Below, piece after piece: positions 8,421 to 24,725 of a DNA stretch of 59,654 nt. The position numbers were made by a program, and so were the translations under genes. The notes under the pieces were generated by a model, which did not search any database, was not told the DNA's origin, and saw only the letters and a program-made list of their open reading frames with translations. The DNA is from an uncultured Candidatus Saccharibacteria bacterium. GTDB taxonomy: Bacteria; Patescibacteriota; Minisyncoccia; Phycocordibacterales; UBA5272. The stretch spans positions 1 to 59,654 of the forward strand of contig CAZEDG010000004.1 in the NCBI GenBank assembly GCA_964510805.1. Direction: 5' to 3'. Positions within the stretch are counted from its first letter, which is position 1. Every line of letters begins with the position of its first letter.

Positions 8421-8454
8421 ATACTATGTGTATCACTTGCTATACTAAAACCAT

Positions 8455-9513: not shown

Positions 9514-9555
9514 GTGTTGTTTTTGTGACTGGTTATTCCGTGCTACTATATCCTC

Positions 9556-10980
9556 ATGCAATATCTTCTCATTCCTTCCCGTCACATTCTTTATAGCAAA
9601 GAGCAGTATGACGCTTTGCTTAATCATCTTAAGAAAAATTCTTATGAGAAAGTAATTCTCGCGATTACTTCGTCTGATCTTAATAATTGTAAGTACTCAT
9701 CGATCGATATCTTCTATCGCACACTTATGGCAAGCACGCTTGCTGGGCATCTTCTTAGGGAATGTAATGCTACCTGTGTTATTACAACTGTTCCTCATAC
9801 CAGGAAAACAGATTCGTATGCATCGTATGTGGTGAAGCATGTTTTTTGGAAAATAGGGCTTACGCTTACACCAGAAAATACAAGAGTCTTCTCGTATGGA
9901 AAGTACATGTCAGAGTCTTTTTCTTCTGCTTCATATGATACCGTATCTTGTTTTGTTAAAGACCATGTGCATCTTTTTGAAAAACTTTTTAGAGAAGGGG
10001 ATAGTGAGTATTTTTGGAGTATGCTTTCTTTACCAAGTGAGCAAGTGTTTTCTCATCAAAGCGAACTTCTTGGAATAACCAAAAAAATATGGCTTGATCC
10101 TATTCTCAAAGAAATGGGAAGTATCACCGAGACACGTAATTATCATATTTATACGCATGCTATGAGTAATGAGCAGGTGATTGAGTACAAGTACAACGAT
10201 ATTAAGGATTATCTTGTGGAAGGAAAAATTGTTGATGAGGGGTGTGCTGATTGTGCGCTCTTTATTCCTGTTGCGCGAGACTTTCCTGATTCTGATCTTA
10301 TTGGTGTTGAGATCTCAAGTGATTTTATCGCAAGAGCAAATGAAAGAATCAGGGAAGGGTTCTTCGGTGGAAGCTTCGTGACAGTGCTTCAGGCGAATTT
10401 GCTTTTTCCTATTTTCCAAAATGAATCTATTGATACGGTGATTTGTAACTCTACGCTTCATGAGATTTGGTCTTATAATAACAAGATGGAATCTCTTAAG
10501 GGATATCTTACTTACAAATATAATCAGCTAAGGAAAGGTGGAAGACTTATTGCTCGTGATGTAGTTGGCGTGGAAGATCCTCGCAAGGTGGTGCTTCTTA
10601 GAGATGTGACCGATAACAATACGATGTGGAAGAAGTTCTTGAATGACTTTGATCATGTGGGTGATGATGTTTGCGAGGAGGTAGTGGTTAATGGTCAGGT
10701 CTATGCGAAGACTTCGTATAAGCTTGCTTCTGAATATTTGCTTCATAAGGATTATCAAGATAATTGGCAGAGTGAGATGCATGAAGAGTTTTGCCACATG
10801 AATAGTACTTCTTGGAAAGAATTGCTTCTTTCGGTCGGGTTTACAAACGTTATCGTGAATGCGTATCAGAATAGCTGGATTGTTGAGAATCGTTTCAAAG
10901 GTAAAGTGATACTTCTTGATGAGTCATTTCGCGAAGTTGCATATCCTCCAACAAATGTAGTGATTGTCGCGGAGAAGTGA
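9556..10980 (+). CDS. 474-aa protein with a C-terminal class-I SAM-dependent methyltransferase-like fold and an uncharacterised N-terminal half.
   Basis: Motif I-like VDEGCADCALF, post-I acidic LIGVEIS, and motifs II/III at FVTVLQANLLFP...IDTVICNSTLHEI. No D/NPPY motif, so it does not look like an N6/N4 DNA methyltransferase. Confidence 0.5.
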   Translation: MQYLLIPSRHILYSKEQYDALLNHLKKNSYEKVILAITSSDLNNCKYSSIDIFYRTLMASTLAGHLLRECNATCVITTVPHTRKTDSYASYVVKHVFWKIGLTLTPENTRVFSYGKYMSESFSSASYDTVSCFVKDHVHLFEKLFREGDSEYFWSMLSLPSEQVFSHQSELLGITKKIWLDPILKEMGSITETRNYHIYTHAMSNEQVIEYKYNDIKDYLVEGKIVDEGCADCALFIPVARDFPDSDLIGVEISSDFIARANERIREGFFGGSFVTVLQANLLFPIFQNESIDTVICNSTLHEIWSYNNKMESLKGYLTYKYNQLRKGGRLIARDVVGVEDPRKVVLLRDVTDNNTMWKKFLNDFDHVGDDVCEEVVVNGQVYAKTSYKLASEYLLHKDYQDNWQSEMHEEFCHMNSTSWKELLLSVGFTNVIVNAYQNSWIVENRFKGKVILLDESFREVAYPPTNVVIVAEK

Positions 10981-11160
10981 CGTATTAAAGCAAAAAAGCG
11001 TTGATAGATATACATAAAAAGGGAGATTTTATAGATAGAAATAATGGAATTGTAAATATTGACAAATATAATTATATATGATAAATTAATCTTGTCTCAA
11101 AATTGGGTTTCCCAACAAGAGCAAATGTAGTTCATCGTTAATCAATCAGGAGAATTCTCA

Positions 11161-13230
11161 ATGGAAACTGTAGGTGGTATCTTCAACGTGATTTCCGGCC
11201 ATCTTGGCACGATCATCGCTTTCATCGCCTTGGTCGCATTCATCCTCCTCTACAAGTGGACGTTCCGTCTCTTCGGCATCTACATCATCCCCGATGACTC
11301 GCTCGGCACACTGACCAAGAAGTTCGTGCTGTTCGGCGCGAACCGCCAGCTGCCAGCGGGCAAGATCGTGGCGCTCCACGGCGAGGCTGGCTACCAGGCC
11401 GACACCCTCGCTCCCGGCATCCACTTCTTTCTGTGGCCGTGGCAGTACGACGTGAACATCTCGAAGTTCACCGTGATCCCTCCGGGGCAGGTCGGTGTGG
11501 TCGAGGCGTGCGATGGTCTACCTCTTCCGGATGGGCGCATCATCGCCAAGGACGTCGTCTGTGATAACTTCCAGGACGCACGCGCCTTCCTCGAGAATAG
11601 TGGTGAGCGTGGCGTGCAGGTGGGCATCATCCCGCCTGGCGCCTGGCGCATCAACACTCTGCTGTTCACGGTGAAGATGTCCCCGATGATCGTCGTCGGC
11701 CCCAACCAGATCGGTGTGGTCGAAGCGCACGACGGTGCCCCGCTCTCAGGCGGGCGCATCCTCGGCAAACATGTCGACAGCGACATGTTCCAGGATGGTC
11801 AAGCCTTCCTCAACAACGGTGGTGAGCGTGGCCCGCAGATGACCATCATCCCCCAAGGTCAGTACCGGATCAATCCGGCACTGTTCAAGGTCGAGATGGC
11901 CGATGTGGTCGACGTGCCTGATGAGAAGATCGGGGTGGTCACCACCAAGGAAGGCGCTCCGCTTCCCACTGGCGACATCGCCGGCGAAGAGGTCGACGGG
12001 CATAACTCGTTCCAGGACCCGATGGCGTTCGTTGGAAGTGGCGGCACCAAGGGTCTCCAGGTCCAGGTGCTGCGCGCCGGTCGCTACTTCATCAACCCGA
12101 AGTTCGCCATCGTGGAGATGAAGGACATGCTCGAGGTGCCGATCGCGCACGTCGGCGTCGTCATCGCGTTTGTCGGCAAGAAGGGCGAGGACGTCACCGG
12201 TGCCGGGTTCAAGCACGGCAACATGGTGCGCAAGGGCGAACGCGGTGTCTGGATCGACGTGCTCGATCCGGGCAAGTACCCGATGAACCCGTACGCCTTC
12301 AAGGTGATCAACGTTCCGACGGCAAACGTCGTGCTCAACTGGGCCAACAGCAAGACCGAGAGCCACAAGCTCGACGAGAAGCTGTCGACCATCACCGTCC
12401 GCTCTTCCGACGGCTTCCCGCTCAACCTGGACGTCAGCCAGATCATCCACATCCCGACCAGCGAGGCCCCCAAGGTCATCGCCCGGTTCGGCAGCATGCT
12501 GGCGCTGGTCACGCAGGTGCTCGAGCCCACCATCGGCAACTACTTCCGCAACGCGGCGCAGAGCTACGGTTGCATCGACTTCGTCGTCGGCCGTGCGCAG
12601 CGCCAAGCCGAGGCTGAACAGGCCATCAGCGAGGCGCTGAAGGAGTACGACGTGGTGGCTGTCCGCACGCTGATCGGCGACCTCGTTCCGCCCCAGGAAC
12701 TGATGGACACGCTGACTCAGCGCAAGGTGGCCGAGCAACAGAAGCTGACGTACGGCGTACAGCAACAGGCGCAAGAGGCGCGCAAGCTCCTCGAGCAAGC
12801 GCATGCGCAAGCCGAGACCCAGGCGAGCGTGGTGACCGCCGAACGTTCCGTCGAGATCGCTCGCTTCAATGCGAGCGCCGCGGTGGAGACCGCGGAAGGT
12901 GGTGCCAAGGCGAAGAAGATCAACGCCAATGCGGACGCTGAAGTCCTCCGTGTCGTCGGCGAAGCCGAAGGCGCGAAGATCACTGCGGTGGGTTCCGCCG
13001 AAGCTGAGGTCATGACTCGCAAGACGACCGCCATCGGTGCCGACAACTACGCGCGCATTCAGGTCGCCGATTCGCTCGGCAAGGCCGGTATCAAGCTGGT
13101 TCCCGACGTCATGGTCGCAGGTGGTGACGGAACGCGCGGTGGCACCATTGTCGACGCACTGCTCGGCAACATCCTTGCCAAGGGTCTCCCTGGCACGCCC
13201 TCCGCGAAGCCGGCCGAAGCCAAGGCTTGA
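11161..13230 (+). CDS. Flotillin/SPFH (band-7) family membrane protein with an N-terminal TM helix, four ~60-aa internal repeats and an Ala/Glu-rich flotillin-type C-terminus. The CDS is strongly GC-rich.
   Basis: Repeats of the form IIPPGQVGVVEAxDGxPLPxGRI...FQDxxAFLxNGGERG. C-terminal AEAEQ.../EAEGAKI stretches. AGGAG lies 9 nt upstream of the ATG. Confidence 0.7.
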   Translation: METVGGIFNVISGHLGTIIAFIALVAFILLYKWTFRLFGIYIIPDDSLGTLTKKFVLFGANRQLPAGKIVALHGEAGYQADTLAPGIHFFLWPWQYDVNISKFTVIPPGQVGVVEACDGLPLPDGRIIAKDVVCDNFQDARAFLENSGERGVQVGIIPPGAWRINTLLFTVKMSPMIVVGPNQIGVVEAHDGAPLSGGRILGKHVDSDMFQDGQAFLNNGGERGPQMTIIPQGQYRINPALFKVEMADVVDVPDEKIGVVTTKEGAPLPTGDIAGEEVDGHNSFQDPMAFVGSGGTKGLQVQVLRAGRYFINPKFAIVEMKDMLEVPIAHVGVVIAFVGKKGEDVTGAGFKHGNMVRKGERGVWIDVLDPGKYPMNPYAFKVINVPTANVVLNWANSKTESHKLDEKLSTITVRSSDGFPLNLDVSQIIHIPTSEAPKVIARFGSMLALVTQVLEPTIGNYFRNAAQSYGCIDFVVGRAQRQAEAEQAISEALKEYDVVAVRTLIGDLVPPQELMDTLTQRKVAEQQKLTYGVQQQAQEARKLLEQAHAQAETQASVVTAERSVEIARFNASAAVETAEGGAKAKKINANADAEVLRVVGEAEGAKITAVGSAEAEVMTRKTTAIGADNYARIQVADSLGKAGIKLVPDVMVAGGDGTRGGTIVDALLGNILAKGLPGTPSAKPAEAKA

Positions 13231-13396
13231 CTCCTGGCTGGTTGAGTAACACTCACTAGTGCAAGGCTAGTGCGAGCCCTGTCAAACGTTAAATCGTTTC
13301 GGGGCTTTTTTCTTTTCCTAACTTTTACTATTTTTTGTATCGTGTACACATTATTAGCTTTTTTGTTGTGGAACTTTTTGGTAGTATATAAAGTAT

Positions 13397-14056
13397 ATGA
13401 GTACAAAGTCTTCAGATATTCGTTTTGCTATTGTTTCTACTGATATTATTTTGCTTCGAGAAAATGAAGGCGATATCGAATTTGGCGTGATGGATATTGA
13501 TAGACCTCCTTACTATGTTCATATGGAGGGTTTTGTCGGTGGTGTACTCAGACCAGAAGAGACTGCTCTTATGGCGAGTCATCGAATTTTGGAAGAAAAG
13601 ACTTCTATCAAACCTAGCGAAGTGCAGTTCTTTCCTCTTGGTTTTTATGATGACCCTAAGCGAGATGAGAGAGGGCGTGTCGTTGCGCTCGCATATCTTG
13701 GTATTCTTACGGGATCAGGTGAGGAATATGGGCTTACTTGGTACCCACTGTACAAGAAGGCAAAGTTTGCATACGATCACACACTTATGTTACGTGATAC
13801 GATAGAGTACCTTAAGTCACATCTCTATGTCTCAACGATTGCACTCGCGTTTCTCCCTAAACATTTTGTGGTAAGTAAACTCAAAGCTATTTTTGATTAC
13901 ATAGAAGGGGAGGAGATTGATAAGAGAAATTTTTATAAATTCCTAGACACCTATCCGGTAGAAAAAACAAAAGAACTGCAGAGTGAAGGGAGGGGGAGGC
14001 CAGCACTTATTTATAAGAAGAAACAGACTAAAGCTTTCTTTTTATCTAAGAAATAA
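13397..14056 (+). CDS. nrtR: Nudix hydrolase fused to a C-terminal winged-HTH, i.e. an NrtR-like NAD-metabolism regulator.
   Basis: Nudix box GGVLRPEETALMASHRILEEKTSI. C-terminal DKRNFYKFL...GRGRPALIYKK resembles the NrtR DNA-binding domain signature. Confidence 0.6.
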   Translation: MSTKSSDIRFAIVSTDIILLRENEGDIEFGVMDIDRPPYYVHMEGFVGGVLRPEETALMASHRILEEKTSIKPSEVQFFPLGFYDDPKRDERGRVVALAYLGILTGSGEEYGLTWYPLYKKAKFAYDHTLMLRDTIEYLKSHLYVSTIALAFLPKHFVVSKLKAIFDYIEGEEIDKRNFYKFLDTYPVEKTKELQSEGRGRPALIYKKKQTKAFFLSKK

Positions 14057-14140
14057 TGTTAGAACCTACACACTTAAGTGACGTGTAGAGAAAACACCTT
14101 ATTTGTGGGTGTTTTTTGCTTTATTTTGCTTGTACACATG

Positions 14141-14229
14141 TTAATTAGTGTAAAACTTGCACTAATTAATCACCTATGCTAGAGTGTAGATAGATATTAG
14201 TGTAGTTAATACACTAATAAATACAAAAG
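14141..14229. promoter_or_regulatory. Two palindromes upstream of the PP2C gene: TTAATTAGTG-N9-CACTAATTAA (14141-14169) and TATTAGTGTA-gttaa-TACACTAATA (14205-14229). Both share the half-site TTAGTGTA/TACACTAA.
   Basis: Read directly from the sequence. The same half-site appears upstream of nadE. Confidence 0.5.
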
Positions 14230-14289
14230 GAATCAATTAAAAATAATTCCATAAAGTTCTTTGAAATTATAGTTCTGAAAGGAAATCAT

Positions 14290-15153
14290 ATGAACACTGT
14301 TTCGCATCTTGAAGAATTGTTTAGAGTTGGTGCAGGAAAAGTTCCTGGAACTGATCATACAATGCCCGGGCTTCCTGCTTGGAAAAATTGTCAGGACGCG
14401 TACCGTGTAGAAATAAACAAGCACGCCATCGTTATCGTTGTTTGTGACGGTAATGGTAGTGAGTCAAATAGCGAAGTTGGAGCATCTCTTTCGGCGCAAC
14501 TCTTGGCAAGAAAAATTGCTGAAGAGGTGAAGATTAGAGAGGTTTTTGAACCAATCGAAATTCTTGAAGAGGCACGCTGTGCACTCATGCAACTTTTTCT
14601 TGATCTCGGTGAGCATCTTATGGGAAGCTTCACTGAGAACGCAAATCGTTTTATGCTTGCAACTGCGCTTGTTGCGATTGTGACCGAAGAAGAAACAGTA
14701 ATTGCTGGTATTGGTGATGGATATTATGCGGTAAATGGAGAAGTTGTTGAAATTGGCCCATTCCCTGGTAACGCACCACCGTACCCTGTCTATGCAATTA
14801 CCGGATCGTCACTTGCTTCGCATTCGCCTGAACTTGTTCGCTTCACTTTATATCGCAGGATGCCAACTCAAGAAGTTGATACGCTTGCGATTATGAGTGA
14901 TGGGGTGAAATATCTCATTCAAGCAGTTGGCACGCCTCTGCCTAAGAAGCCTCATGAACAAGTTCCTCCTCTTGATACATTTTGGTTGGAAGAGCGGTAT
15001 GTGAAGAATCCTGACAATATTCGTCGTCAGCTTGCGCTTATTAACATCGAAACGATTTCGTACACCGAAGATGGTAAGCCTTACTTACGTACTGGCGTGC
15101 TCAAGGATGATACAACAATTGTCATCATGAGGCGTAATACGTCTAGTACGTAG
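14290..15153 (+). CDS. PP2C-family Ser/Thr protein phosphatase.
   Basis: Metal-binding motifs VCDGNGS, GIGDG and MSDG. Confidence 0.65.
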   Translation: MNTVSHLEELFRVGAGKVPGTDHTMPGLPAWKNCQDAYRVEINKHAIVIVVCDGNGSESNSEVGASLSAQLLARKIAEEVKIREVFEPIEILEEARCALMQLFLDLGEHLMGSFTENANRFMLATALVAIVTEEETVIAGIGDGYYAVNGEVVEIGPFPGNAPPYPVYAITGSSLASHSPELVRFTLYRRMPTQEVDTLAIMSDGVKYLIQAVGTPLPKKPHEQVPPLDTFWLEERYVKNPDNIRRQLALINIETISYTEDGKPYLRTGVLKDDTTIVIMRRNTSST

Positions 15154-15178
15154 TCGTCTTGCTAACCCAAAAGGAGAT

Positions 15179-17056
15179 ATGATGGACGTCATGATTGATG
15201 GGAAGCGTTTTCGGACGAATCCTTCGAAACTTATCGGCCAAGGAGGTGAAGCTCTGATTTATGATATTGGCAACAATACCGTACTCAAGCTTTACAAACT
15301 TCCAACTCATCCTGACTTCGTTGGCAACAAGGAGGCAGTTGATGGCGCTGTTGCAAGAATTGCTGAACACCAAACCAAACTTGCTCTCTTTCCAAAAGGA
15401 ATGCCTAAGCGTGTAGTTGGTCCAAAGTCTCTTGCGCTTGATACAAAAGGGGATGTGGTCGGATACACTATGCCACTTATTTCTCAAGGAGAAGTGTTAC
15501 TTCGTTATGGAGAACGTAGATTCCGTGAGATGGGAGGCATCAAAGAAGAGACTCTTCGTCTGATTTATCTTGACCTTCATACAACGGTGCTTGGTGTACA
15601 TAAGGCTAATGCGGTAATTGGAGACTTCAATGACTTGAATGTGATTGTTGTTGGCGATGAAGCATATCTTGTGGATACTGACAGTATGCAATTTGGTTCA
15701 TTTTATTGTCGTGTCTTTACTGCAAAGTTTCTTGATCCGACTCTTGCAAAAGAGTCAGGTGGTAGTCTGATACTTGCAAAGAAGCACAATCAAAATTCTG
15801 ATTGGTATGCTTACAGTATCATGCTTATGCAAGCGCTCCTGTATGTTGGTCCGTACGGCGGAGTATTTCGCCCACAGGATAAAAATCATACCTTGAGTCA
15901 TGACTTGCGTCCACTTAAACGGATTACTGTTTTTCATCCTGAAGTTAAGTATCCAAAACCGGCACGTCATTTCCGTGTACTTCCGGACGATCTTTTGCAT
16001 CAGTTTGAAAACATCTTTACAAAAGATGTTCGTGGAGTATTTCCAAGACATCTTGTTGAAAGTCTTGTTTGGAAAACCTGTAGCACGTGCGGTATGCTTC
16101 ATATGCGTACATTGTGCCCGGCGTGTGTCCAAATGACACCTCCTATGGTGCAAGAAGTTTCTACAGATACAGTGACAGCACGTAAAGTTTTCAGGACAAC
16201 AGGAACGATTCTCACGGTTGCTTATCAAGGTCGCACTCTTAAGTGGGTGTATCATGAAAGCGATAGATATCTTCGTGAAGATGGAAGTCTTGTCGCACAT
16301 GGAGCTCTTGATCATCTTTTGCGAGTGAAGATTGTCGGTAAAGAAACATTGCTTGCAAAGAGTGGTCGTGGAATGCTTGTTGGTGCAAAAGGTGCACATA
16401 AGCATTACAGCTTCGACATGTTCGGCAATCTTCCGATTGTTGACACTAACAATGAAGCACTTTTCTTTGTCTTGAATGGAAGTCTTGTACGATCTCTAGA
16501 AAGCAGTCTTCTTTCAGGTGAAGAAATTATCGGAAGTGTGCTTGCTAACCGTACTCTTGTATGGGTTGGCGAAGAACTCGGCTTTGGTTTTTATAAAGCA
16601 GGGTCACTTACACGGTACTTGATCTGGAACATAAAGAGTCGCGCAATCAATGATTCGATTATTCTTCCTTCTGTATCTTCACAAATCGTTGATGCAAAAG
16701 CATATTTTGGTCACCGAAATGTTTGGTTCATGATGACCGTAAAAGAAGGAGGAGAAGTGTACAATCGCATGTATTTGATTAGTGATACTGGTCAAGTAGA
16801 AGCACGTGCCGAAGGGAAGGCAGGAGACTCTTCATGGATTGGAGATTTGCGCGGTAAGTGCGCAATCGGTAATGCACTCTTTGTTCCGACTGATGATGGA
16901 ATTGTACGTGTCGAAGCTAGACAAGGAACAATTGTTCCAGTCAAAGAGTTTTCTAGCACTACAAAATTCGTTGATAGCGCTTCAATGCTTTTTCCTGGAA
17001 ACCCAGGAATTGTCTCTGTGCGAAATGGAGAGATCTGGAATTTGGAAATGAAATAA
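15179..17056 (+). CDS. Protein-kinase-like (PKL-fold) protein with a Cys4 zinc ribbon and a long beta-rich C-terminal region.
   Basis: Gly-rich loop GQGGEA, Lys in TVLKLYK, catalytic-loop-like VIGDFNDLNV, DFG-like DTDSMQFG, and CSTCG...CPAC. Confidence 0.55.
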   Translation: MMDVMIDGKRFRTNPSKLIGQGGEALIYDIGNNTVLKLYKLPTHPDFVGNKEAVDGAVARIAEHQTKLALFPKGMPKRVVGPKSLALDTKGDVVGYTMPLISQGEVLLRYGERRFREMGGIKEETLRLIYLDLHTTVLGVHKANAVIGDFNDLNVIVVGDEAYLVDTDSMQFGSFYCRVFTAKFLDPTLAKESGGSLILAKKHNQNSDWYAYSIMLMQALLYVGPYGGVFRPQDKNHTLSHDLRPLKRITVFHPEVKYPKPARHFRVLPDDLLHQFENIFTKDVRGVFPRHLVESLVWKTCSTCGMLHMRTLCPACVQMTPPMVQEVSTDTVTARKVFRTTGTILTVAYQGRTLKWVYHESDRYLREDGSLVAHGALDHLLRVKIVGKETLLAKSGRGMLVGAKGAHKHYSFDMFGNLPIVDTNNEALFFVLNGSLVRSLESSLLSGEEIIGSVLANRTLVWVGEELGFGFYKAGSLTRYLIWNIKSRAINDSIILPSVSSQIVDAKAYFGHRNVWFMMTVKEGGEVYNRMYLISDTGQVEARAEGKAGDSSWIGDLRGKCAIGNALFVPTDDGIVRVEARQGTIVPVKEFSSTTKFVDSASMLFPGNPGIVSVRNGEIWNLEMK

Positions 17057-17122
17057 CAAGAAGAGGTCAGAAGATCTCCAGGTTATTTTTCATCAACGCT
17101 CAACCATGAAAGGAAACTGAGC

Positions 17123-18169
17123 ATGAACCCGTCATTCTACAACGCGAGCAATGCATCCAACTGGGCATATCGCCCCGATCAACGAGCTGTGTTTCTCGAA
17201 GCACAGGAAACCATCAAGCGTGAGAAGATTCGTCCTCACAACACTGACAAAAAGAAGGTACACCTTCTCATGATCGATGTGCAGAAGGACTTCTGTCTCC
17301 CGGAAGGAACTCTGTATGTTGGTGGTCGTTCTGGTACTGGTGCAATCGATGATTCTCGGCGTCTTGCTGAGTTCATCTATCGTGAAGTGAAGAACATTAC
17401 TGAGACAACGGTAACGCTCGACACTCACTTTTCTCACCAGATTTTCTTTCCGTCGTTTTGGGTTGAAACAGCAACCGGGTCTGCACCTCTTCCTCATACT
17501 GAGATTACAACTGAAGAAATTAGGAAGGGTAAGTTCGCACCACATCCGGCAATGGCTTGGCTCTTCAAGCAGTTCGGTGGTCAGTATGCTTGGCTTCAAA
17601 AACAAGTTTTGTACTATTGCCAAGAGCTTGAAAAGGCTGGTAAGTACAAGCTTTATCTGTGGCCTGAGCATTGCATCATTGGATCTGATGGGCACGCGCT
17701 GGTTGGTGTTGTGCATGAAGCACGCATGTTCCATTCGTATGTTCGTAGCGCTTGGTCGAACGCAGAAGTGAAGGGTGGTAATCCTCTGACAGAGAATTAC
17801 TCGATCCTTTCACCTGAAGTCACGACAACCTGGCAAGGTGGCGCGCTTGCACAAAAGAATTCCAATTTTGTGAAAACGCTCCTTGATGCGGATCGAGTGA
17901 TTATTGCAGGTCAAGCTTCGAGTCACTGTGTCGCGTCTTCTACGGACGACCTTTTGCATGAGATCAACGCTCAAGATCCTGAACTTGCAAAGAAGGTATA
18001 CGTTGTGACTGATCTTATGTCAGCTGTGACGGTGCCTGATGGTAAGGGAGGGTTCTATCTCGATTGCACTTCGCAAGCAGAGATGGCGTTTGCTCGCTGG
18101 GAAAAGGCTGGCATGAAGCTCGTCACTTCGACGGTAAGCATGGCAGACTGGCCCGGCATGGATCTCTGA
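17123..18169 (+). CDS. pncA: Nicotinamidase (isochorismatase-family cysteine hydrolase).
   Basis: LLMIDVQKDFC N-terminal motif and the catalytic Cys in SSHCVAS. Confidence 0.65.
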   Translation: MNPSFYNASNASNWAYRPDQRAVFLEAQETIKREKIRPHNTDKKKVHLLMIDVQKDFCLPEGTLYVGGRSGTGAIDDSRRLAEFIYREVKNITETTVTLDTHFSHQIFFPSFWVETATGSAPLPHTEITTEEIRKGKFAPHPAMAWLFKQFGGQYAWLQKQVLYYCQELEKAGKYKLYLWPEHCIIGSDGHALVGVVHEARMFHSYVRSAWSNAEVKGGNPLTENYSILSPEVTTTWQGGALAQKNSNFVKTLLDADRVIIAGQASSHCVASSTDDLLHEINAQDPELAKKVYVVTDLMSAVTVPDGKGGFYLDCTSQAEMAFARWEKAGMKLVTSTVSMADWPGMDL

Positions 18170-18202
18170 ACCTAACCAAGCAACCAAAGAAAGGAGTTCA
18201 TC

Positions 18203-19057
18203 ATGAGCTCAGTTTCCGTTAAGGACCTTTTCGGTGGGGCCGTCAATGTCGGTGATTTGTCGACACAAGCAATGCAACTTGTAACGGTTCCTGATGTTGG
18301 TAATCAGATTCAAGCTGGTCTTGGTATCTCAGTTGATGATGTGACCGCATCTGATGGGGTTACTCTCGTCGGTACTCTGATTGATGATTCTGGTTCTATT
18401 CGTAGTGCGGGTAATTCCCAAGTGGTGCGTGATGGTCACAATCTTGTGATTGATTCACTTGGTGCATCTAAGCAGAAGGATAGCATCCTTGCGCAGTGCA
18501 TGTACTTGAATGGCCACCAACATTATCCGTTTGTGATGTTGGATCAGACTGTTCCTATGACTGTGCAGAACTATAATCCGAACAAAGGCACCCCACTCTA
18601 TGATCAGTCCATCGTTTTTCTCGGGCTTCAGCTTGCAAAGGCACAGGAGTTCCTTGATAACGGAGTTGCTGTTCGTACGGTCGGTGCAATCATTACTGAC
18701 GGTGCTGATGTACATTCTGCAAAGACTGCTTCTGATGTGCGCAAGATTGTCGAAGATATGGTTAGGAGTGAGCGCCATATCGTGCTCTTCATGGGCATTG
18801 ATGATCAGTACACTGACTTTTATGAAGTTGCAAGTGGCTGGACCAAGGCTGAGGTAGAGCAGATGAAACAAGCTGACACGCTATCATCTGCAAAAGCAAA
18901 AGGGGGTATGGGTATTCCTCCGGCTTGGGTGCTCAATCCAGGTAATACGCAAAGTGAGATCCGCAAAGCGTTCGCGCTTGTCTCTCAATCCGCGGTACGC
19001 GCTTCGCAAGGGGGCAAAGCCTTCTCGCAAGTTGCAACTGGCGGGTTTGGTGGGTAG
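18203..19057 (+). CDS. von Willebrand factor A (vWA) domain protein.
   Basis: MIDAS motif DDSGS and the downstream TDG motif (ITDGAD). Confidence 0.55.
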   Translation: MSSVSVKDLFGGAVNVGDLSTQAMQLVTVPDVGNQIQAGLGISVDDVTASDGVTLVGTLIDDSGSIRSAGNSQVVRDGHNLVIDSLGASKQKDSILAQCMYLNGHQHYPFVMLDQTVPMTVQNYNPNKGTPLYDQSIVFLGLQLAKAQEFLDNGVAVRTVGAIITDGADVHSAKTASDVRKIVEDMVRSERHIVLFMGIDDQYTDFYEVASGWTKAEVEQMKQADTLSSAKAKGGMGIPPAWVLNPGNTQSEIRKAFALVSQSAVRASQGGKAFSQVATGGFGG

Positions 19058-19115
19058 TAAGTAAACTGAGTTGTTCTTTTATACGTAGATAAAGACAAAT
19101 ACGTCCCTCTACGCA

Positions 19116-19162
19116 AGCCTCTTAGATACATCTTCGGATGATTTTGTAAGAGGCTTTTTTGT
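19116..19162 (+). terminator. Intrinsic terminator.
   Basis: AAGCCTCTTA...TAAGAGGCTT plus a T-tract. Confidence 0.6.
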
Positions 19163-19251
19163 TTGATTGGTTTTTTGTACAAGAAGTCTACAAAACTCCT
19201 TATAAAACAAGCTTTTTTGTGGAAACTGTGGATAAGGCTTGCATTCTTTTT

Positions 19252-19280
19252 TTAATTAGTGTATAATATACACATATTAA
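19252..19280. promoter_or_regulatory. Palindrome TTAATTAGTGTATAATATACACATATTAA overlapping a TATAAT -10, upstream of nadE. It shares the TTAGTGTA/TACAC half-site with the 14.1-kb sites.
   Basis: Read directly from the sequence. Confidence 0.5.
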
Positions 19281-19296
19281 TATAACATCATCACCT

Positions 19297-21147
19297 ATGA
19301 ACACTTACCCACGCATCACTATCGCTCAACTAGAAGTTAAGCCTCTTGATATTGAAGGTAATCTTAAGCGAATGTTTTCTTGTATACAAAAAGCAAAAGA
19401 TGATCATTCGGAAATCGTTATCTTTCCTGAACTCTGTATTTCTGGGTATCTTCTTGGTGATCGTTTTGAATACGAAGATTTGCTTATGACGCTACGAGAT
19501 GCAAATGAGCGAGTGCGAGAAGCAAGTACTGACATTGTAATTATTTGGGGAAATATTGTTTGTGATGAGAATACAATTGGAGAAGATGGTCGTATGCGTA
19601 AGTATAATGCGGTGTGTATCGCAGAGAACGGACAGTATGTAAGTAACGGTGTTCTTAGTGGGTATATGCCTAAGACACATCTTCCTAAGTATAGAATTTT
19701 TGATGATGCGAGACACTTTTATCCTGCATATAAGTTGGCACAAGAAATGGGGCTTTCTTATGAAAAATTTTTTAGACCATTTTGTATTACAAGAAAAGAT
19801 GGAAGTGTGTATTCATTAGCACTTACCGTGTGTGAGGATATGTGGGAAGATGAGTACCAGATTTCTCTTGCAACTATGTACGCACAAGCACATGTAGATC
19901 TTCTTATCGATATCTCAGCATCTCCATGGACTCTTGGAAAATGGCATGCTCGCGAAACAATGCTTACAAAAAGAAGTAAGACTATAGGTGTTCCTCTTGT
20001 GTATGTGAATTGTGTTGGGCTTCAGAATAATGGCAAGAATCTCGTGCTCTTCGATGGTGCGTCAGTGATTGTTACCGGAGAAGGTGAGTTTGCATATCGT
20101 GCGAAGTTGTATGACCCTACTTGTGATACTATTGATTGTGATCCTTCATGTAAGCTACTTACTCCTTATGTAAGAAAAAGTGAGATAGAGGAGCTTCATG
20201 ATTCTCTTATTCAAGGAATTAAAATTTTTTATACTCCTTTTCAAAAAATCATCATCGGGCTTTCTGGCGGTATTGATTCTGCACTTATGCTTGCTCTCTT
20301 GGTTCGGGCACTTGGAAGTGAAAAGATTCTTGCGATTAATATGCCGACAAGATGGAATTCTGTAACCACAAAACGCCTTGCAGAAGAATGTGCTAAGCGG
20401 TGTGGTGTTGCCTATCAAGTTGTTCCAATTGAAGGATTGTATGAAGAGCAAGTGAGGCTCCTTACAGCAAGTGGTGTACAGGAAGTTACTACTCTTACCA
20501 AAGAAAATATACAAGCACGTCTTCGTGGGTCTGTACTTGCAACATTTGCTTCACAGTATCAAGGAGTCTTTACTTGTAATGGCAATAAGACAGAAGTCGC
20601 AATGAACTATTTTACACTCTATGGCGATGGGGCAGGAGCGTCTGCATTCCTTGGGGATCTTTGGAAAGGACAAGTGTATGCTCTTGCGCGATATATCAAC
20701 AGCAAGTCACAAGTTTCTCTTATTCCAGAAGGAATACTTACTATCGTTCCAAGCGCAGAACTATCTGACGCACAGAACGTAGACGAAGGAAAAGGTGATC
20801 CAATTGTGTATGAATTTCATGATGCCCTTCTTAAGGCGTTTTGTGAGACAAGGCTTGGTGTGAAGACATTACTTAAGCTGTATCTTCGTGGTGATTTTTG
20901 GAAAACAATAGGACTTGCTTCTGGTTCTTTTGAAACGTATTTTAGAACTAAGCAAGCATTTGTAGACGCGATTCTCCATGCATGGAATGCATACAACACT
21001 GAGTACAAGCGGGTACAACTCCCTCCTGTATTCCTTACATCAAGACGTGCATTTGGTTTTGACAGAAGAGATACTATCGCTACTTCAGTCATTGATAGTG
21101 AAACAAAATCTCTTGTAGAATCAATCCTCTCAGAATCTTCACCTTAG
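19297..21147 (+). CDS. nadE: Glutamine-dependent NAD+ synthetase (nitrilase domain plus NAD synthetase domain).
   Basis: N-terminal CN-hydrolase (FPELCISGY) and C-terminal SGGIDS PP-loop. Confidence 0.85.
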   Translation: MNTYPRITIAQLEVKPLDIEGNLKRMFSCIQKAKDDHSEIVIFPELCISGYLLGDRFEYEDLLMTLRDANERVREASTDIVIIWGNIVCDENTIGEDGRMRKYNAVCIAENGQYVSNGVLSGYMPKTHLPKYRIFDDARHFYPAYKLAQEMGLSYEKFFRPFCITRKDGSVYSLALTVCEDMWEDEYQISLATMYAQAHVDLLIDISASPWTLGKWHARETMLTKRSKTIGVPLVYVNCVGLQNNGKNLVLFDGASVIVTGEGEFAYRAKLYDPTCDTIDCDPSCKLLTPYVRKSEIEELHDSLIQGIKIFYTPFQKIIIGLSGGIDSALMLALLVRALGSEKILAINMPTRWNSVTTKRLAEECAKRCGVAYQVVPIEGLYEEQVRLLTASGVQEVTTLTKENIQARLRGSVLATFASQYQGVFTCNGNKTEVAMNYFTLYGDGAGASAFLGDLWKGQVYALARYINSKSQVSLIPEGILTIVPSAELSDAQNVDEGKGDPIVYEFHDALLKAFCETRLGVKTLLKLYLRGDFWKTIGLASGSFETYFRTKQAFVDAILHAWNAYNTEYKRVQLPPVFLTSRRAFGFDRRDTIATSVIDSETKSLVESILSESSP

Positions 21148-21206
21148 AGGAAGATTCTGAGAAGAAAGTGTTGTTCTTTGTTACAAATCGCCTAAAGGAG
21201 GCACAT

Positions 21207-22520
21207 ATGGACACGAATCTGCGCGCGCTCGTCGAAGAAGTGAAGAACTCTGTCTTCGGTAGCACGTTTGTTCCGCCAGTTCAAAGTCTCATGGAGAATG
21301 ACTTCTATAAGTTCACCATGGGACAATGGATTCATAAGTATTATCCGGATGTTGTGGTTACCTTCAAGGTGATCATTCGTGATAAGAAGGTGCGACTGTT
21401 TGAGTTCGTTGATCGTGAAGATCTTGAGCGGGCATTTGATCATCTTCGGTCGCTTCGGTTCCGTCGTACTGATCTTTATTACTTGCGTGGTATTGATCTC
21501 TATGAAAAGTACATGTTCAAGGAAGAGTTTTTGCAATTCCTTTGGAACTTCCAACTTCCTCCGTATCAGATTACTCAATCAGACGGTGTCACTGAGATTT
21601 CGTTCACGGGTAAGTGGTGCGAGGTGAGTCAATGGGAGACGCTTGCGCTTCCTCTCATCATGGAACTGTACTATCGTGGCGTGATGAAGAGACTCTCTTC
21701 TTTCGCAATTGATTCTTTGTTTGAAGTTCTTGACCATAGACTTGTATCTAATCTTTACCGCATTCGTAATTTTTCTTCACCAATTACATTTGCCGACTTC
21801 TCGCTTCGTCGTAGGTTCTTGCATCTGTGGCAAAAGCATGCCGTCAAGACCGCGGTTAAGGTTCTTGGAAACAAATTTGTTGGTACATCCAACACGTGGA
21901 TGGCCTTCAATCAAGATCTTGTTCCGATCGGCACAAATGCTCATGAGATGCCAATGGTTGCTGTTGCTCTGCAGAATCATCCAGATGACATGATCTCTAC
22001 CCAGTATGACATTCTTCGGAAGTGGGAAGAGATGTACGGACAAGCTATGCGCATCATGCTTCCTGATACCTACGGGTCAGAACAGTTCTATCGTAATGCG
22101 CCAGAATTCTTGAAGAATTGGCGTGGACAGCGTCAGGACTCAGGTGATCCAATCGTAGAAGGTGAGCGTTACAAGGCATGGCTTAGGTCGCATGGCATTG
22201 ATCCGAAGACTAAGATCTCCATCTTTTCTGATGGGCTTAATGTTCCTGAGATGGAGAGGCTTGCGTCACATTTCAATGGCAATCATCTCTATACTTTTGG
22301 GTGGGGAACTCTCTTCGCAAATGATACAGAGGGGGTTGTCCCTGGCAACGAAGACATGCGTCCCTTCTCGATTGTATGCAAAGTCGTAGGAGCAAATGGT
22401 CGCCCTTGTGTGAAGCTCTCTAACAATCCGAATAAGGCGACTGGTCCAAAAGAAGAGATTGATCGTTACATGAAGATCTTCCACCCGGAAGGGCTTGTTG
22501 CAAGCGACGTGGTGGTCTAA
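21207..22520 (+). CDS. pncB: Nicotinate phosphoribosyltransferase.
   Basis: DFYKFTMGQ motif. AAGGAGG directly precedes the ATG at 21207. Confidence 0.8.
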   Translation: MDTNLRALVEEVKNSVFGSTFVPPVQSLMENDFYKFTMGQWIHKYYPDVVVTFKVIIRDKKVRLFEFVDREDLERAFDHLRSLRFRRTDLYYLRGIDLYEKYMFKEEFLQFLWNFQLPPYQITQSDGVTEISFTGKWCEVSQWETLALPLIMELYYRGVMKRLSSFAIDSLFEVLDHRLVSNLYRIRNFSSPITFADFSLRRRFLHLWQKHAVKTAVKVLGNKFVGTSNTWMAFNQDLVPIGTNAHEMPMVAVALQNHPDDMISTQYDILRKWEEMYGQAMRIMLPDTYGSEQFYRNAPEFLKNWRGQRQDSGDPIVEGERYKAWLRSHGIDPKTKISIFSDGLNVPEMERLASHFNGNHLYTFGWGTLFANDTEGVVPGNEDMRPFSIVCKVVGANGRPCVKLSNNPNKATGPKEEIDRYMKIFHPEGLVASDVVV

Positions 22521-22531
22521 CCACTATCTCT

Positions 22532-22566
22532 CTGGCGAAGTGTTGTATTACTTCGCCAGTTTTATA
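22532..22566 (+). terminator. Intrinsic terminator.
   Basis: CTGGCGAAG...CTTCGCCAG plus a T-tract. Confidence 0.7.
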
Positions 22567-22651
22567 AAGCATAAAAGTAGTATACTTTCCAAAAATTGCA
22601 TGGAAAGACTTGTATGTTTTTAAAACTCTTATTATTTTTTACTTTTAACAT

Positions 22652-23599
22652 ATGAAAAAAATCGGTGTCATCGTAGCAAGGTTCCAAGTTCCTTCTCTTC
22701 ATGAGGGACATCTTCATTTACTCACTTCTACTGCTCGTGAAGTTGATGTGCTTATTGTTGTGCTTGGGTATAAGGTTAATCAACCGGACAGCAAGAACCC
22801 TCTTTCCCTTTCTGTAAGAACTGCTATGGTGAAGCAAGCTTTTAAAAAACATTGTAATCCAAATGCTAAGCTCATAGTTCTTTCTCTTCAAGATCATCCT
22901 TTATCTAATGAAGCATGGTCACAAGAACTTGATCTTCTTATCGGAGAGGAGGTTGTGCGACTAGAGCAAGAGACACAAGAAACTTTTGCTGTTTGTCTAT
23001 ACGGGTCACGTGACAGCTTCATACGATATTATCATGGGCTTTATCAGCATCAAGTAATTGATGAAATAGAAGCAATTTCTGGTACAAAGGTACGTGAGCA
23101 AGTGAAGTCTCGTGATCCAGAATCATTTGGTGATCAGGAACGAGAAGGTATGGTGTATGCACTTACAACACTCTACAAGACAGGGATGGCTGTTGTTGAT
23201 ATTGCGGTATACAAAGAAGAGTACGGAGAAAAATACGTACTCCTTGGTCGCAAAAAGAGAGAGACGCAATATAGATTTATTGGTGGATTCTTTGATCCAG
23301 AAGTAGATAACTCCCTTGAAGATTCTGCGTTACGAGAACTTAGAGAAGAAGCTGGAGATGATCTTGTTGTTGATTCACTTAGCTATTGCATGAGTCATAA
23401 GATTGACGATTGGCGTTATAGAGATAATGATCACAAGATTGTGAGTGCACTTTTTTTGGCTAAGTATAGACATGGCGAAGTTACTCCGCTTGATGATATC
23501 GAGGCACTTGCTTGGCATAAGCTAACGCATGAGTTACCAGAGAAGGTGGTAGCTAATCATAGACTTTTTGCAGAGAAGATAGCGGGGATGCTTTTGTAG
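22652..23599 (+). CDS. nadM: Bifunctional NMN/NaMN adenylyltransferase (NadM-type) fused to a C-terminal Nudix hydrolase.
   Basis: N-terminal (H/T)xGH nucleotidyltransferase motif FQVPSLHEGH. C-terminal Nudix box GGFFDPEVDNSLEDSALRELREEAG. Confidence 0.7.
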   Translation: MKKIGVIVARFQVPSLHEGHLHLLTSTAREVDVLIVVLGYKVNQPDSKNPLSLSVRTAMVKQAFKKHCNPNAKLIVLSLQDHPLSNEAWSQELDLLIGEEVVRLEQETQETFAVCLYGSRDSFIRYYHGLYQHQVIDEIEAISGTKVREQVKSRDPESFGDQEREGMVYALTTLYKTGMAVVDIAVYKEEYGEKYVLLGRKKRETQYRFIGGFFDPEVDNSLEDSALRELREEAGDDLVVDSLSYCMSHKIDDWRYRDNDHKIVSALFLAKYRHGEVTPLDDIEALAWHKLTHELPEKVVANHRLFAEKIAGMLL

Positions 23600-23831
23600 C
23601 TGTCTTTAGTTATTCTTGTGCCAAGAAAGCATCAGAACTCAATCCAATTGAGGCGCTGAGGTATGAGTAGGGAAAAGAAGGAAGAATGAGGAGTGAGGAA
23701 TGAAGGGGATAAGATTAACTAAACCAAGAAAGAAAGTGTGTAAATATGAAGGAAAAAATTAAATATTTTTTGACTTAGTTACCAACATATTGTAGTATCA
23801 TGTGAGTTGTTTTTTAGAAAGGATTTTGATC

Positions 23832-24725
23832 ATGAACGCAAAGTATCTTATTGCGTTTGCTCTTGTTTTCTTGTTTGCTTGCACACAAGAAGCTCCAGCA
23901 TCGCAGAAGGTGGAACAGGGAGATAAGGATCCATGTCCTTATACCTACATGTCTTGGAATTTGCTTAACTTTGGTAAGTCTAAGTCAGATGACGCACTTC
24001 GTGTCATGGCAAAAGTGCTCGCACCTTCAGATGTTATTGGAGTACAAGAAGTAAATGCTGGTAAGGAGTATGGTGCTCAAGCGATTGCAAAGCTTGTTGG
24101 GTATATGAACGAAGAAGCAAGTAAGCTTCCTGATAAAAAGAAGCACGTAGGTTTCGACTACGTTGTATCTAACCCGACAATGCCACGTAACACTGAGACT
24201 GAGCGGTATGCTTTCATCATAAGAAAAGGACTTACTTTTTCTCGTGATAGTGCTACACTCGTTACTTCGATTGAAAAGAGTGTAAGTAGGGAGCCATATG
24301 CAGTTACTGTTTCTTTTGAAGAGAAATCAGTTACATTCTTCACATTCCATGCAGTACCTTCTAACAAGGCTCCACTCGAAGAAGTGAGGCGACTTACGGA
24401 AGCACAAGAAATTACGTCTCCCTCACATGCAATTTTTTCTGGAGATTTCAATATTCAAGCAGGGAAGATTAATGATCTTTTTGCTAGTATGGGTTATGGT
24501 TATGATGTGGTCAACACAAGAACAACATTACGAAAAGAGTACTCAGCGAATCGCGGATATTTGTTCCAAGAATTTGACCACATCTTTCCAAAAGGGGTGA
24601 AGGTGTGTAAGAGTGGTGCTGTTGATTTCGTCAACGACTACTTCAGAAAAGATGGTAACGTTGATGTGGTCGGTGCACACAAGGTGAGTGATCATCTCCC
24701 TGTTTTTGTTCGTTTTGGTTTTTGA
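23832..24725 (+). CDS. Secreted or lipoprotein endonuclease/exonuclease/phosphatase (EEP) family protein.
   Basis: Lipobox LFAC after a signal peptide. Catalytic motifs of the EEP type (SWNLLNFG, GDFN, SDHLPV). RBS AAAGGA. Confidence 0.6.
   Translation: MNAKYLIAFALVFLFACTQEAPASQKVEQGDKDPCPYTYMSWNLLNFGKSKSDDALRVMAKVLAPSDVIGVQEVNAGKEYGAQAIAKLVGYMNEEASKLPDKKKHVGFDYVVSNPTMPRNTETERYAFIIRKGLTFSRDSATLVTSIEKSVSREPYAVTVSFEEKSVTFFTFHAVPSNKAPLEEVRRLTEAQEITSPSHAIFSGDFNIQAGKINDLFASMGYGYDVVNTRTTLRKEYSANRGYLFQEFDHIFPKGVKVCKSGAVDFVNDYFRKDGNVDVVGAHKVSDHLPVFVRFGF

Follow-up and report, generated by a model that had tools for sequence, protein, structure and literature searches.

Introduction

The NAD (nicotinamide adenine dinucleotide) regulons of the NrtR family are governed by a regulator with a Nudix-like domain and a winged helix, which is encoded beside its targets; most NrtR groups share an operator pattern of 21 bp, palindromic and with the core GT-N7-AC (Rodionov et al. 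2008, PMC2330246). Here we describe a cluster of eight genes, all on the + strand, at positions 13397-23599 of a 59.6-kb genome window (the whole stretch of DNA that was analyzed, and the extent over which the regulon was followed). The cluster is probably an NAD-salvage regulon of a Candidate Phyla Radiation (CPR)/Patescibacteria-type bacterium under an NrtR-family repressor. It resembles the regulons described in PMC2330246 in having the regulator gene beside the targets, a predicted 21-bp GT-N7-AC operator that overlaps promoter elements, targets that include pncA, pncB and nadE (and prs-nadV in a related locus, L006), and a regulator whose Nudix box is degenerate, like those of the catalytically inactive SoNrtR and syNrtR. 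It differs from them in its CPR/Patescibacteria host, in a NadM-Nudix protein that replaces NadD and whose gene lacks a site, in a pncA operon that also encodes a PP2C phosphatase, a kinase-Zn ribbon-propeller protein and a vWA-like protein, and in having no detectable autoregulatory site.

The three additional genes recall the TerY-P triad, which, in the summary of Anantharaman et al. 2012 given in PMC11090510, comprises a TerY-like vWA protein, a PP2C phosphatase and a Ser/Thr kinase with a Zn ribbon. A set consisting of a kinase-Zn ribbon-beta-rich protein, PP2C and vWA has also been noted in conflict systems (PMC7159879). The three co-directional genes in the window have the same domain set, with the Zn ribbon directly after the kinase domain and the vWA assignment tentative. 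Unlike in the described triad, a beta-propeller is added at the C-terminus of the kinase, the kinase and vWA genes are separated by that of a nicotinamidase, the promoter has predicted NrtR operators, no PADLOC model matches, and the vWA protein is weak by sequence. Stand-alone anti-phage variants of TerY-P were reportedly described by Gao and co-workers in 2020; we know of no established mechanism for the TerY-P-like triad. A full-text literature search returned no paper that links a nicotinamidase with PP2C and vWA proteins or with TerY, and none on such a cassette under NrtR control. A nicotinamidase inside a TerY-P-like cassette with NrtR operators across phyla is unexpected and apparently undescribed.

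The CPR/Patescibacteria are ultrasmall, mostly uncultured bacteria for which hardly any regulation is known and whose cofactors are believed to be supplied by hosts. The window is a piece of cellular genome with a GC content of about 40%, encoding ClpB, LeuRS, a sigma-70 factor, UvrA/UvrC, ribonucleotide reductase, RNase J, DnaE, a DUF5671 protein and one tRNA (Rfam scan). Its NrtR and kinase-like proteins have their closest relatives in metagenome-assembled genomes (MAGs) of Lloydbacteria, Falkowbacteria, Paceibacterota, Sungbacteria, Uhrbacteria and 'Parcubacteria', all CPR/Patescibacteria, and from these relatives its source was treated as a CPR-type bacterium. The literature search found no mention of NrtR in CPR. 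The NrtR NAD-salvage regulon is real and ordinary in kind, in a lineage where that search found none described, and it adds to the CPR/Patescibacteria a transcription-factor regulon with defined, if predicted, operators.

Results and discussion

Operators and promoters

The 21-bp motif TTAGTGTA-N5-TACACTAA has three well-placed matches in the window, none assigned to a strand: operator O1 (TTAGTGTAAAACTTGCACTAA, 14145-14165, one mismatch), operator O2 (TTAGTGTAGTTAATACACTAA, 14197-14217, a perfect palindrome with no mismatch, 73 nt upstream of the start of the PP2C gene) and operator O3 (TTAGTGTATAATATACACATA, 19256-19276, two mismatches, 21 nt upstream of nadE). Allowing up to three mismatches, the window contained four matches against 0.25 expected, and none of 100 shuffled sequences reached four. 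A position weight matrix (PWM) trained only on 15 sites of other loci, with the window's own sites left out, scored O2 at 28.5 bits, O3 at 22.8 bits and O1 at 17.8 bits; these were ranks 1-3 among 59,634 window positions, and the 95th percentile of shuffle maxima was 15.9 bits. The fourth motif match, at 58395-58415 (three mismatches, 16.3 bits), was set aside as chance, lying within a long surface-protein open reading frame (ORF) and being borderline against the shuffles.

The core of the motif, G6T7-N7-A15C16, follows the generic family pattern of PMC2330246, so that the suggestion in an earlier, sequence-only reading of this DNA that the operator departs from known NrtR motifs is rejected. 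That reading had correctly located the extended palindromes at 14141-14169 (O1 with 10-bp arms) and 19252-19280; its remaining palindrome, 14205-14229, was about 8 nt off the true position of 14197-14217. The extra half-site that it proposed does exist as AGTGTA at 14183-14188, but has no partner and no statistical support.

The sites lie where a repressor could act. TATAAT (19262-19267), the putative -10 element of nadE, falls inside O3, as had been proposed, and TTGCAT (19239-19244) lies 17 nt upstream of it; the orthologous site before nadE in the related locus L003, ATAGTGTATAATATACACTAT, also contains TATAAT. A possible -35 element, TTGCAC (14157-14162), is overlapped by O1, and a possible -10 element, TAGAGT (14180-14185), is found shortly before O2. 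These promoter assignments were read from the sequence, and the positions of the sites, with TATAAT in O3 and with O1 and O2 flanking a putative promoter, would fit repression.

The expectation that the motif would recur upstream of NAD genes in related genomes was borne out on contigs encoding NrtR homologues, where sites were found at equivalent positions in relatives whose NrtR is 27-63% identical. L003/L004 (NrtR 57% identical, the same eight genes) have a pair of sites between nrtR and the PP2C gene and a single site immediately ahead of nadE. In L047 and L055, as in L003, the nrtR-PP2C spacer holds a pair, and in L012, a contig that stops before the next gene, a pair lies in the spacer that follows nrtR. 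L006 (NrtR 59% identical), with the gene order nrtR-prs-x-nadV, has two sites before prs and two after nadV. Sites also adjoin nrtR in L009/L010, L012, L013 and L017, the last a Patescibacteria MAG with an NrtR 27% identical, and NrtR-type sites are present in L037, L047 and L089 as well. A palindrome filter that demanded complementarity at 8 or more of 10 positions proved too strict, overlooking real sites, and was replaced by direct reading of spacers and by counting GTGT-N7-ACAC cores.

We considered whether the palindromes could be chance AT-rich inverted repeats, or RNA or terminator elements, instead of protein operators. The intergenic regions are AT-rich and contain other hairpins, and the weak match at 58395-58415 lies inside a gene. 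Against this stand the absence of any shuffle with four matches and the externally trained PWM, which placed the three sites on top of the window. The core also recurs at equivalent promoter positions in loci of 40% to 72% GC, which AT-richness does not explain, and Rfam gave no RNA family in the window besides the tRNA. We regard this explanation as extremely improbable. The palindromes are predicted to act as NrtR operators, a link that is well supported by the comparative evidence.

NrtR-type operators were also seen before genes of other kinds. In L009/L010 they precede a pair without Pfam match, of 283 aa and 388 aa (L010, 844-2927), and in L006 a protein of at least 214 aa without Pfam match, encoded after nadV (9779-10547). 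These are candidate new regulon members. The 283/388-aa genes of L010 were compared with the genes that follow nrtR in L028 (237/370 aa) and are not homologous to them.

Transcription units

Terminator-like hairpins with U-runs, all on the + strand, follow nrtR (14089-14117, terminator scan; fold -18.4 kcal/mol, z = -3.3), the vWA-like gene (AAGCCUCUUA...UAAGAGGCUU followed by U6, 19115-19163; fold -18.9 kcal/mol, z = -2.65) and pncB (22532-22559, terminator scan, with a weak U-tract; fold -18.2 kcal/mol, z = -5.5). The arrangement suggests four units: nrtR; PP2C-kinase-pncA-vWA (operon 1, closed by the second hairpin); nadE-pncB; and nadM-Nudix. Operators are present only before the second and third of these. 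The sequence-only reading had proposed a single repressor regulon, and this holds for the two operons with matching operators; it does not extend to nadM-Nudix and nrtR, which have no site, and hairpins separate the four units. In a search for autoregulation of nrtR, the best upstream PWM match (13332-13352) reached 7.1 bits and was discarded. Sites before nrtR are present in L017 and L013.

The regulator and its effector

The 219-aa product of nrtR (13397-14056) is an NrtR-family Nudix/winged-helix regulator by sequence and fold. Pfam matches to NrtR_WHD (PF21906; 1.4e-10, 41.6 bits against a cut-off of 27) and NUDIX (3.4e-5, 24.3 bits against a cut-off of 21.1) both exceeded their thresholds, and the C-terminal winged helix carries the motifs DKRNFYKF ... 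GRGRPA. A single-sequence search of the PDB gave end-to-end alignments with BtAraR (1e-15) and SoNrtR (2e-5), and a search with the family profile gave full-length alignments with AraR (1e-26), EF2700 (2e-14) and SoNrtR (6e-14). An AlphaFold2 (AF2) model, with a mean predicted local distance difference test score (pLDDT) of 72.7, superposed on AraR and on the SoNrtR-DNA complex with TM-scores of 0.65-0.69; the score for the complex, 3gz6, was 0.67, and the C-terminal domain was thus modelled as the NrtR-type winged helix-turn-helix that had been predicted for it, with low pLDDT in the wing. In a Foldseek search, residues of about 10-145 aligned with the SoNrtR Nudix domain (3gz8) and with other Nudix proteins. 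The identification of this protein as an NrtR-type regulator is therefore upheld.

The regulator shares its two-domain fold with SoNrtR (PDB 3gz5/3gz6/3gz8) and BtAraR (5bs6), and shares with SoNrtR the GRGRPA-type wing motif and the equivalents of Arg41 and Arg98. It differs in that its sequence is nearer to AraR than to SoNrtR (25-27% against 18-19% identity in the fold alignments), and in that its ADP-ribose effector is a prediction. Its Nudix box is degenerate (G49-x5-E55-x7-R63-I-L-E-E67-K68-T-S-I): three signature residues are substituted, and the substitutions are invariant across the family. The protein is therefore presumably not a hydrolase. The catalytically dead, ADP-ribose-responsive NrtRs of Shewanella and Synechocystis likewise have perturbed Nudix signatures (PMC2330246).

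In SoNrtR, ADP-ribose is contacted by Arg41 and Arg98, and the latter is Gly in the arabinose-specific AraR (PMC4666351). In the profile alignments, R36 and the invariant R92 of the regulator align with SoNrtR Arg41 and Arg98, and their conservation favours a nucleotide-sugar effector. The regulator might instead sense NAD (as reported for Corynebacterium NdnR), a pentose (AraR, XylR) or a phosphorylated derivative, with another switch logic. The best match in both sequence and structure, BtAraR, would fit this, as would the diversified effectors of the NrtR family (PMC2330246; PMC4666351). We consider it improbable, since no sugar-utilization genes are present in the cluster or the syntenic loci, since an Arg invariably occupies the position of SoNrtR Arg98 where AraR has Gly and the Arg41 equivalent is also kept, and since the targets pncA, pncB and nadE (prs-nadV in L006) belong to the classes listed for ADP-ribose-responsive NrtRs (PMC2330246).

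The phosphatase-kinase-nicotinamidase-vWA cassette

The five genes named in the sequence-only reading (nrtR, pncA, nadE, pncB and nadM-Nudix) are all present by Pfam and NCBIfam, with pncA an atypical candidate. The list was incomplete: a PP2C gene (14290-15153), a gene for a 625-aa kinase-like protein (15179-17056) and one for a 284-aa vWA-like protein (18203-19057) lie within the same coordinates. The first operon does contain the pncA candidate, as had been claimed, but is not simply a pncA operon; it is a conserved PP2C/kinase/nicotinamidase/vWA cassette. From this arrangement, the nicotinamidase would never be expressed alone, being embedded in a PP2C/kinase-Zn ribbon-propeller/vWA cassette.

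The first gene of operon 1 encodes a PP2C-type protein phosphatase of 287 aa (Pfam PP2C_2, 4e-19), and an orthologue is found at this place in L003, L017, L027-L029 and many metagenome loci. The 625-aa protein had no Pfam match; its orthologue in L003 matched Pkinase (3.9e-6). The AF2 model (pLDDT 90.1) shows an N-terminal kinase fold, a Zn ribbon (CxxC..CxxC near residues 300-316) and a C-terminal beta-propeller (residues 325-624), and Foldseek matched it to GRK2, PKA and IRAK4 at E of about 1e-6 to 1e-7, with the propeller matching DDB1. The G-loop, K36, the catalytic loop (D148/N153) and D165/D167 are invariant in 33 kinase homologues; roughly 1,100 genomes have a member of this kinase family.

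The third gene (17123-18169) is the pncA candidate and encodes a large-type nicotinamidase of 348 aa, with weak Isochorismatase and PRK11609 matches, an E of 0.088 in a phmmer search of the PDB, and conserved motifs. HMMER aligned its DVQKDF, WPEHC and SSHCV with the motifs of M. tuberculosis PncA (3pl1). The triad D52, K217 and C269 is invariant in 23 family members, as are D100, H102 and H183, which from the motifs would form the metal site. The family is very large: over 4,500 homologues with identities of about 60% come from Myxococcota, Elusimicrobia, CPR and other groups, many of them annotated as nicotinamidase by their sources. We read it as a distinct subfamily of long (about 350 aa) nicotinamidases with predicted activity, and the adjacency of PncB in many loci supports this assignment.

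A vWA fold for the 284-aa product of the last gene is tentative. In an alignment of 17 sequences, residues of the metal-ion-dependent adhesion site type are kept (D61-x-S63-x-S65, T130 and D166, the TDG Asp). The window protein had no Pfam match, and two of the 17 family members had weak VWA matches (best 0.0012). The family profile found no match in the PDB and only noise in NCBIfam, and hhalign against an approximate integrin I-domain sequence gave a probability of 8.5%, with only the ITDG strand aligned.

The same gene order, PP2C-kinase-nicotinamidase-vWA, is present in the CPR contigs L003, L017, L037, L047 and L089, in the Elusimicrobia MAG L028 (where PncB, a Band_7 gene and NrtR come after), in the Haliangiaceae contig L029 and in the 1.3-Mb contig L027. 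We sampled 80 metagenome loci, chosen only by nicotinamidase similarity. The kinase was the immediate upstream neighbour in 32 of the 63 loci with room, the vWA gene was the immediate downstream neighbour in 35 of 61, and the full trio was present in 17 of the 30 loci with long flanks. Eight of these 17 full-trio loci have nrtR within 10 kb, and one, L089, contains the complete set of eight cluster genes.

In 14 of 27 independent cassette loci, the 300 nt before the PP2C gene contain exact GTGT-N7-ACAC cores; the density of cores is 2.73 per kb, a 56-fold enrichment over the 0.049 per kb of the remaining sequence of these loci. There are usually two cores, 22-26 bp apart, abutting TTGAC(A/T) and TAnnnT boxes, in high-GC relatives also. 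The GC content of the operator-bearing loci ranges from 0.40 to 0.72, and nine of the 14 have no nrtR in the fetched flank. Since operators precede the cassette across phyla, we conclude from these sequences that it is a recurrent cross-phylum member of NrtR-type regulons and no accident of this genome.

The cassette also occurs on a jumbo-phage-like contig. Five IMG/VR contigs classed as viral (L110-L114, 81-545 kb; L110 is the metagenome locus L084) bear it. In L113, a divergent copy (6322-11812, 31-45% identity) lies beside a phage-type DNA polymerase (phrog_1252, 4e-154) and a primase, and L111 also has NadE- and PncB-like genes. No NrtR-type sites were found in L110-L114.

These observations bear on a different reading of the cassette: a TerY-P-like module for stress or phage defence, independent of NAD salvage and placed between nrtR and the NAD genes by chance, in which the amidase would be an effector or accessory enzyme and not a housekeeping PncA. 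The trio has the TerY-P composition as it is summarised in PMC11090510, a similar set is found in conflict systems (PMC7159879), in 9 of the 30 loci with long flanks the cassette stands without an NAD gene or nrtR inside 10 kb, and the cassette is present on IMG/VR contigs, in one case beside a phage DNA polymerase and primase. Against it, PADLOC (E <= 0.01) gave no family for the PP2C, kinase, amidase or vWA proteins (a scan of the regulator, NadM, SPFH and endonuclease/exonuclease/phosphatase (EEP) proteins was also without match), and the amidase keeps every catalytic and metal residue of nicotinamidases. PncB, NadE, NadM or NAD kinase adjoin the cassette in many loci. The 14 loci with operators, over their whole GC range, include some without any other NAD gene in view, so that the cassette itself would be coupled to the NAD/ADP-ribose signal. 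An independent module is in our view possible, though doubtful; it is compatible with NAD salvage, and the two are not mutually exclusive.

A reading that combines them is that the cassette is an undescribed ADP-ribose-induced module, in which phosphorylation sets nicotinamide clearance and channelling into NAD resynthesis, in NAD-centred conflicts. We hold this to be rather unlikely. If true, it could serve recovery from NADase-type immune effectors, or deny nicotinamide to phage NAD-reconstitution pathways, and it would explain why the cassette is shared by many phyla and jumbo phages and why NrtR operators occur without NAD genes.

A gene for pyridoxamine-5'-phosphate oxidase (PdxH) lies directly upstream of the cassette promoter in L049 (6527-7168), L107 (6591-7580) and L050 (6474-7133), and a PdxH homologue lies further upstream in L031 (1809-2468). 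This proximity hints at a wider cofactor-salvage neighbourhood.

NAD enzymes and the route from nicotinamide

The nadE gene (19297-21147) encodes a glutamine-dependent NAD synthetase with nitrilase-like and synthetase domains (Pfam CN_hydrolase 5e-14, NAD_synthase 1.1e-41; NCBIfam PRK13981 1.8e-101, below the model cut-off). It is followed by pncB (21168-22520), for nicotinate phosphoribosyltransferase (Pfam NAPRTase 2.5e-33, NAPRTase_N 2.7e-19; NCBIfam PRK05321 373.8 bits against a cut-off of 379), whose real start is probably the ATG at 21207, because its orthologues have 436 aa.

The last gene of the cluster (22652-23599) encodes a nicotinamide mononucleotide (NMN)/nicotinic acid mononucleotide (NaMN) adenylyltransferase fused to a Nudix domain (Pfam CTP_transf_like 4.7e-6, residues 16-149; NUDIX 6.2e-11, residues 181-306), with the motifs RFQ..HEGH and ISGTKVR and an intact RELREE Nudix core in the translation. 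Like the bifunctional NadM-Nudix proteins of Synechocystis (slr0787), Acinetobacter and Francisella (2qjo), it has an NMN adenylyltransferase (NMNAT) domain with H-x-G-H and ISxTxxR and a fused Nudix domain of the ADP-ribose-pyrophosphatase type with an intact REUXEE core, and it co-occurs with NrtR. All its top NCBIfam matches are bifunctional NadM-Nudix models, but the scores are far below cut-off (62.8 against 397 bits); it is therefore a divergent member, which sets it apart from the described proteins. Since the RELREE core is apparently intact, the Nudix domain plausibly hydrolyses ADP-ribose.

The sequence-only reading had inferred a complete Preiss-Handler route. The PncA-like protein, PncB and the glutamine-dependent NadE would fit it; the NaMN step depends on a bifunctional NadM or on a route through NMN, as there is no NadD in the window. 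In bacteria with NadM instead of NadD, conversion of NaMN to nicotinic acid adenine dinucleotide (NaAD) and passage via NMN are both documented: in Acinetobacter, bifunctional NadM is paired with a two-domain NadE, like the NadE here, and the Francisella-type route runs via NMN (PMC3376133). A route from nicotinamide to NAD is plausible from the gene content of the window, and may be complete.

In related CPR clusters, an NAD kinase gene lies between the vWA-like gene and pncB (L037, 12116-12976; L047, 11367-12149; L017, 14678-16060). The NAD kinase of L017 is fused to a cytidylyltransferase-like (NMNAT-type) domain and has 460 aa.

Proposed regulation and its meaning

In the model that we favour, a dimer of NrtR would repress both operons by binding to O1, which covers the putative -35 element of operon 1, to O2, close behind the putative -10 element of the same promoter, and to O3, which covers that of nadE. 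ADP-ribose from NAD cleavage would bind the Nudix-like domain and release the repressor. Derepression would supply nicotinamidase (nicotinamide to nicotinic acid), PncB (nicotinic acid to NaMN) and NadE, while NadM-Nudix would be made by read-through or from a promoter of its own. Its transferase domain would close the route, either from NaMN to NaAD and then by NadE, as in Acinetobacter, or through NMN, and its Nudix domain would destroy ADP-ribose and so reset the switch. The cassette may act as a phosphorylation switch, like TerY-P, that gates or scaffolds the nicotinamidase; this is the weakest element of the model. ADP-ribose as the effector, NadM as the enzyme that adenylylates NaMN, and the function of the trio of kinase, phosphatase and vWA-like proteins are predictions from gene content and homology.

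Several observations weigh against this model. Neither nadM-Nudix nor nrtR has a PWM site before it, and with the hairpin after pncB, part of the pathway may escape the regulon. The proposed promoters were not called by a consensus promoter scan, and recognizable sites are missing from roughly half of the cassette loci, among them every phage-like one. In the regulator model, the DNA-binding wing (residues 187-219) has a pLDDT below 50, and the nearest solved structure is that of the arabinose regulator AraR and not of an ADP-ribose-responsive NrtR. The pncA candidate falls below the cut-offs of Pfam Isochorismatase (18.5 against 27 bits) and NCBIfam PRK11609 (22.5 against 174 bits), and the window contains no NadD.

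A regulated and nearly self-contained NAD salvage would be useful for metabolic reconstruction and for the design of culture media (nicotinamide or niacin supplementation). If the trio controls the nicotinamidase, bacterial NAD salvage would here be gated by phosphorylation in a way that, to our knowledge, has not been described, and the TerY-P-like triad would gain a metabolic function.

Origin of the cluster and neighbouring genes

Several genes of the cluster (14290-22520) had been described as somewhat GC-richer than the housekeeping genes and, from this, the cluster as a mobile or acquired island. Against a background GC content at third codon positions (GC3) of 0.307 +/- 0.047, GC3 is raised in pncA (0.479), the vWA-like gene (0.439) and pncB (0.488), about 3-4 SD above background, but is normal (0.27-0.35) in the other five of the eight genes, nrtR, PP2C, kinase, nadE and nadM. 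A recently acquired metabolic island, not ancestral to the genome, would also fit the clearly foreign SPFH gene immediately upstream (GC3 0.82) and the spread of the cassette over phyla and phage-like contigs. On the other side, the same eight genes, with the 3' order reshuffled, and their operators are present in CPR-type contigs with an NrtR 27-63% identical, which argues for long residence in the lineage. Identities among PncA sequences are star-like, with no close non-CPR donor, and recent horizontal transfer of pncA was rejected on this identity matrix; the SPFH gene is apparently a separate insertion between a conserved methyltransferase gene and nrtR. We consider recent acquisition of the cluster unlikely, and the island proposal thus finds little support.

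The SPFH/Band_7 gene (11161-13230, +, 689 aa) has a GC content of 0.63, in a genome of 0.40, and lies directly upstream of nrtR. The SPFH-nrtR junction is repeated at 99.6-100% identity in two independent assemblies (L001 and L002), and the protein's best match among deposited phages, with 48% identity across 75% of its length, is in the 642-kb uncultured phage LR756502.1. The gene has the appearance of a recent insertion from a foreign source. A Band_7 gene also stands beside the cassette in L028, and SPFH was examined as a cassette partner; tblastn found none in the other 80 loci, and the proximity was put down to coincidence.

Further upstream, the methyltransferase gene (9556-10980, +) encodes 474 aa, with a C-terminal S-adenosylmethionine-dependent methyltransferase domain and an N-terminal half without assignment. 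It is orthologous to a 555-aa methyltransferase in L037 (35% identity, E 1e-102), which there adjoins nrtR. Clustered homologues are also found next to the L047 and L003 clusters, making it a conserved neighbour. Directly downstream of nadM-Nudix, a gene at 23802-24725 (+) encodes a 307-aa EEP family protein with an N-terminal hydrophobic segment, apparently a signal peptide.

At the end of the window (57300-59654), an ORF comes after a 660-bp intergenic stretch of only 23% GC and continues past the window's last base. The weak motif match at 58395-58415 lies inside this ORF. With long repeats rich in Thr, Asn and Ser, and a collagen-like GKDGKDGKDGRDGKDG repeat at about 58720-58770, it probably encodes a surface or fibre protein.

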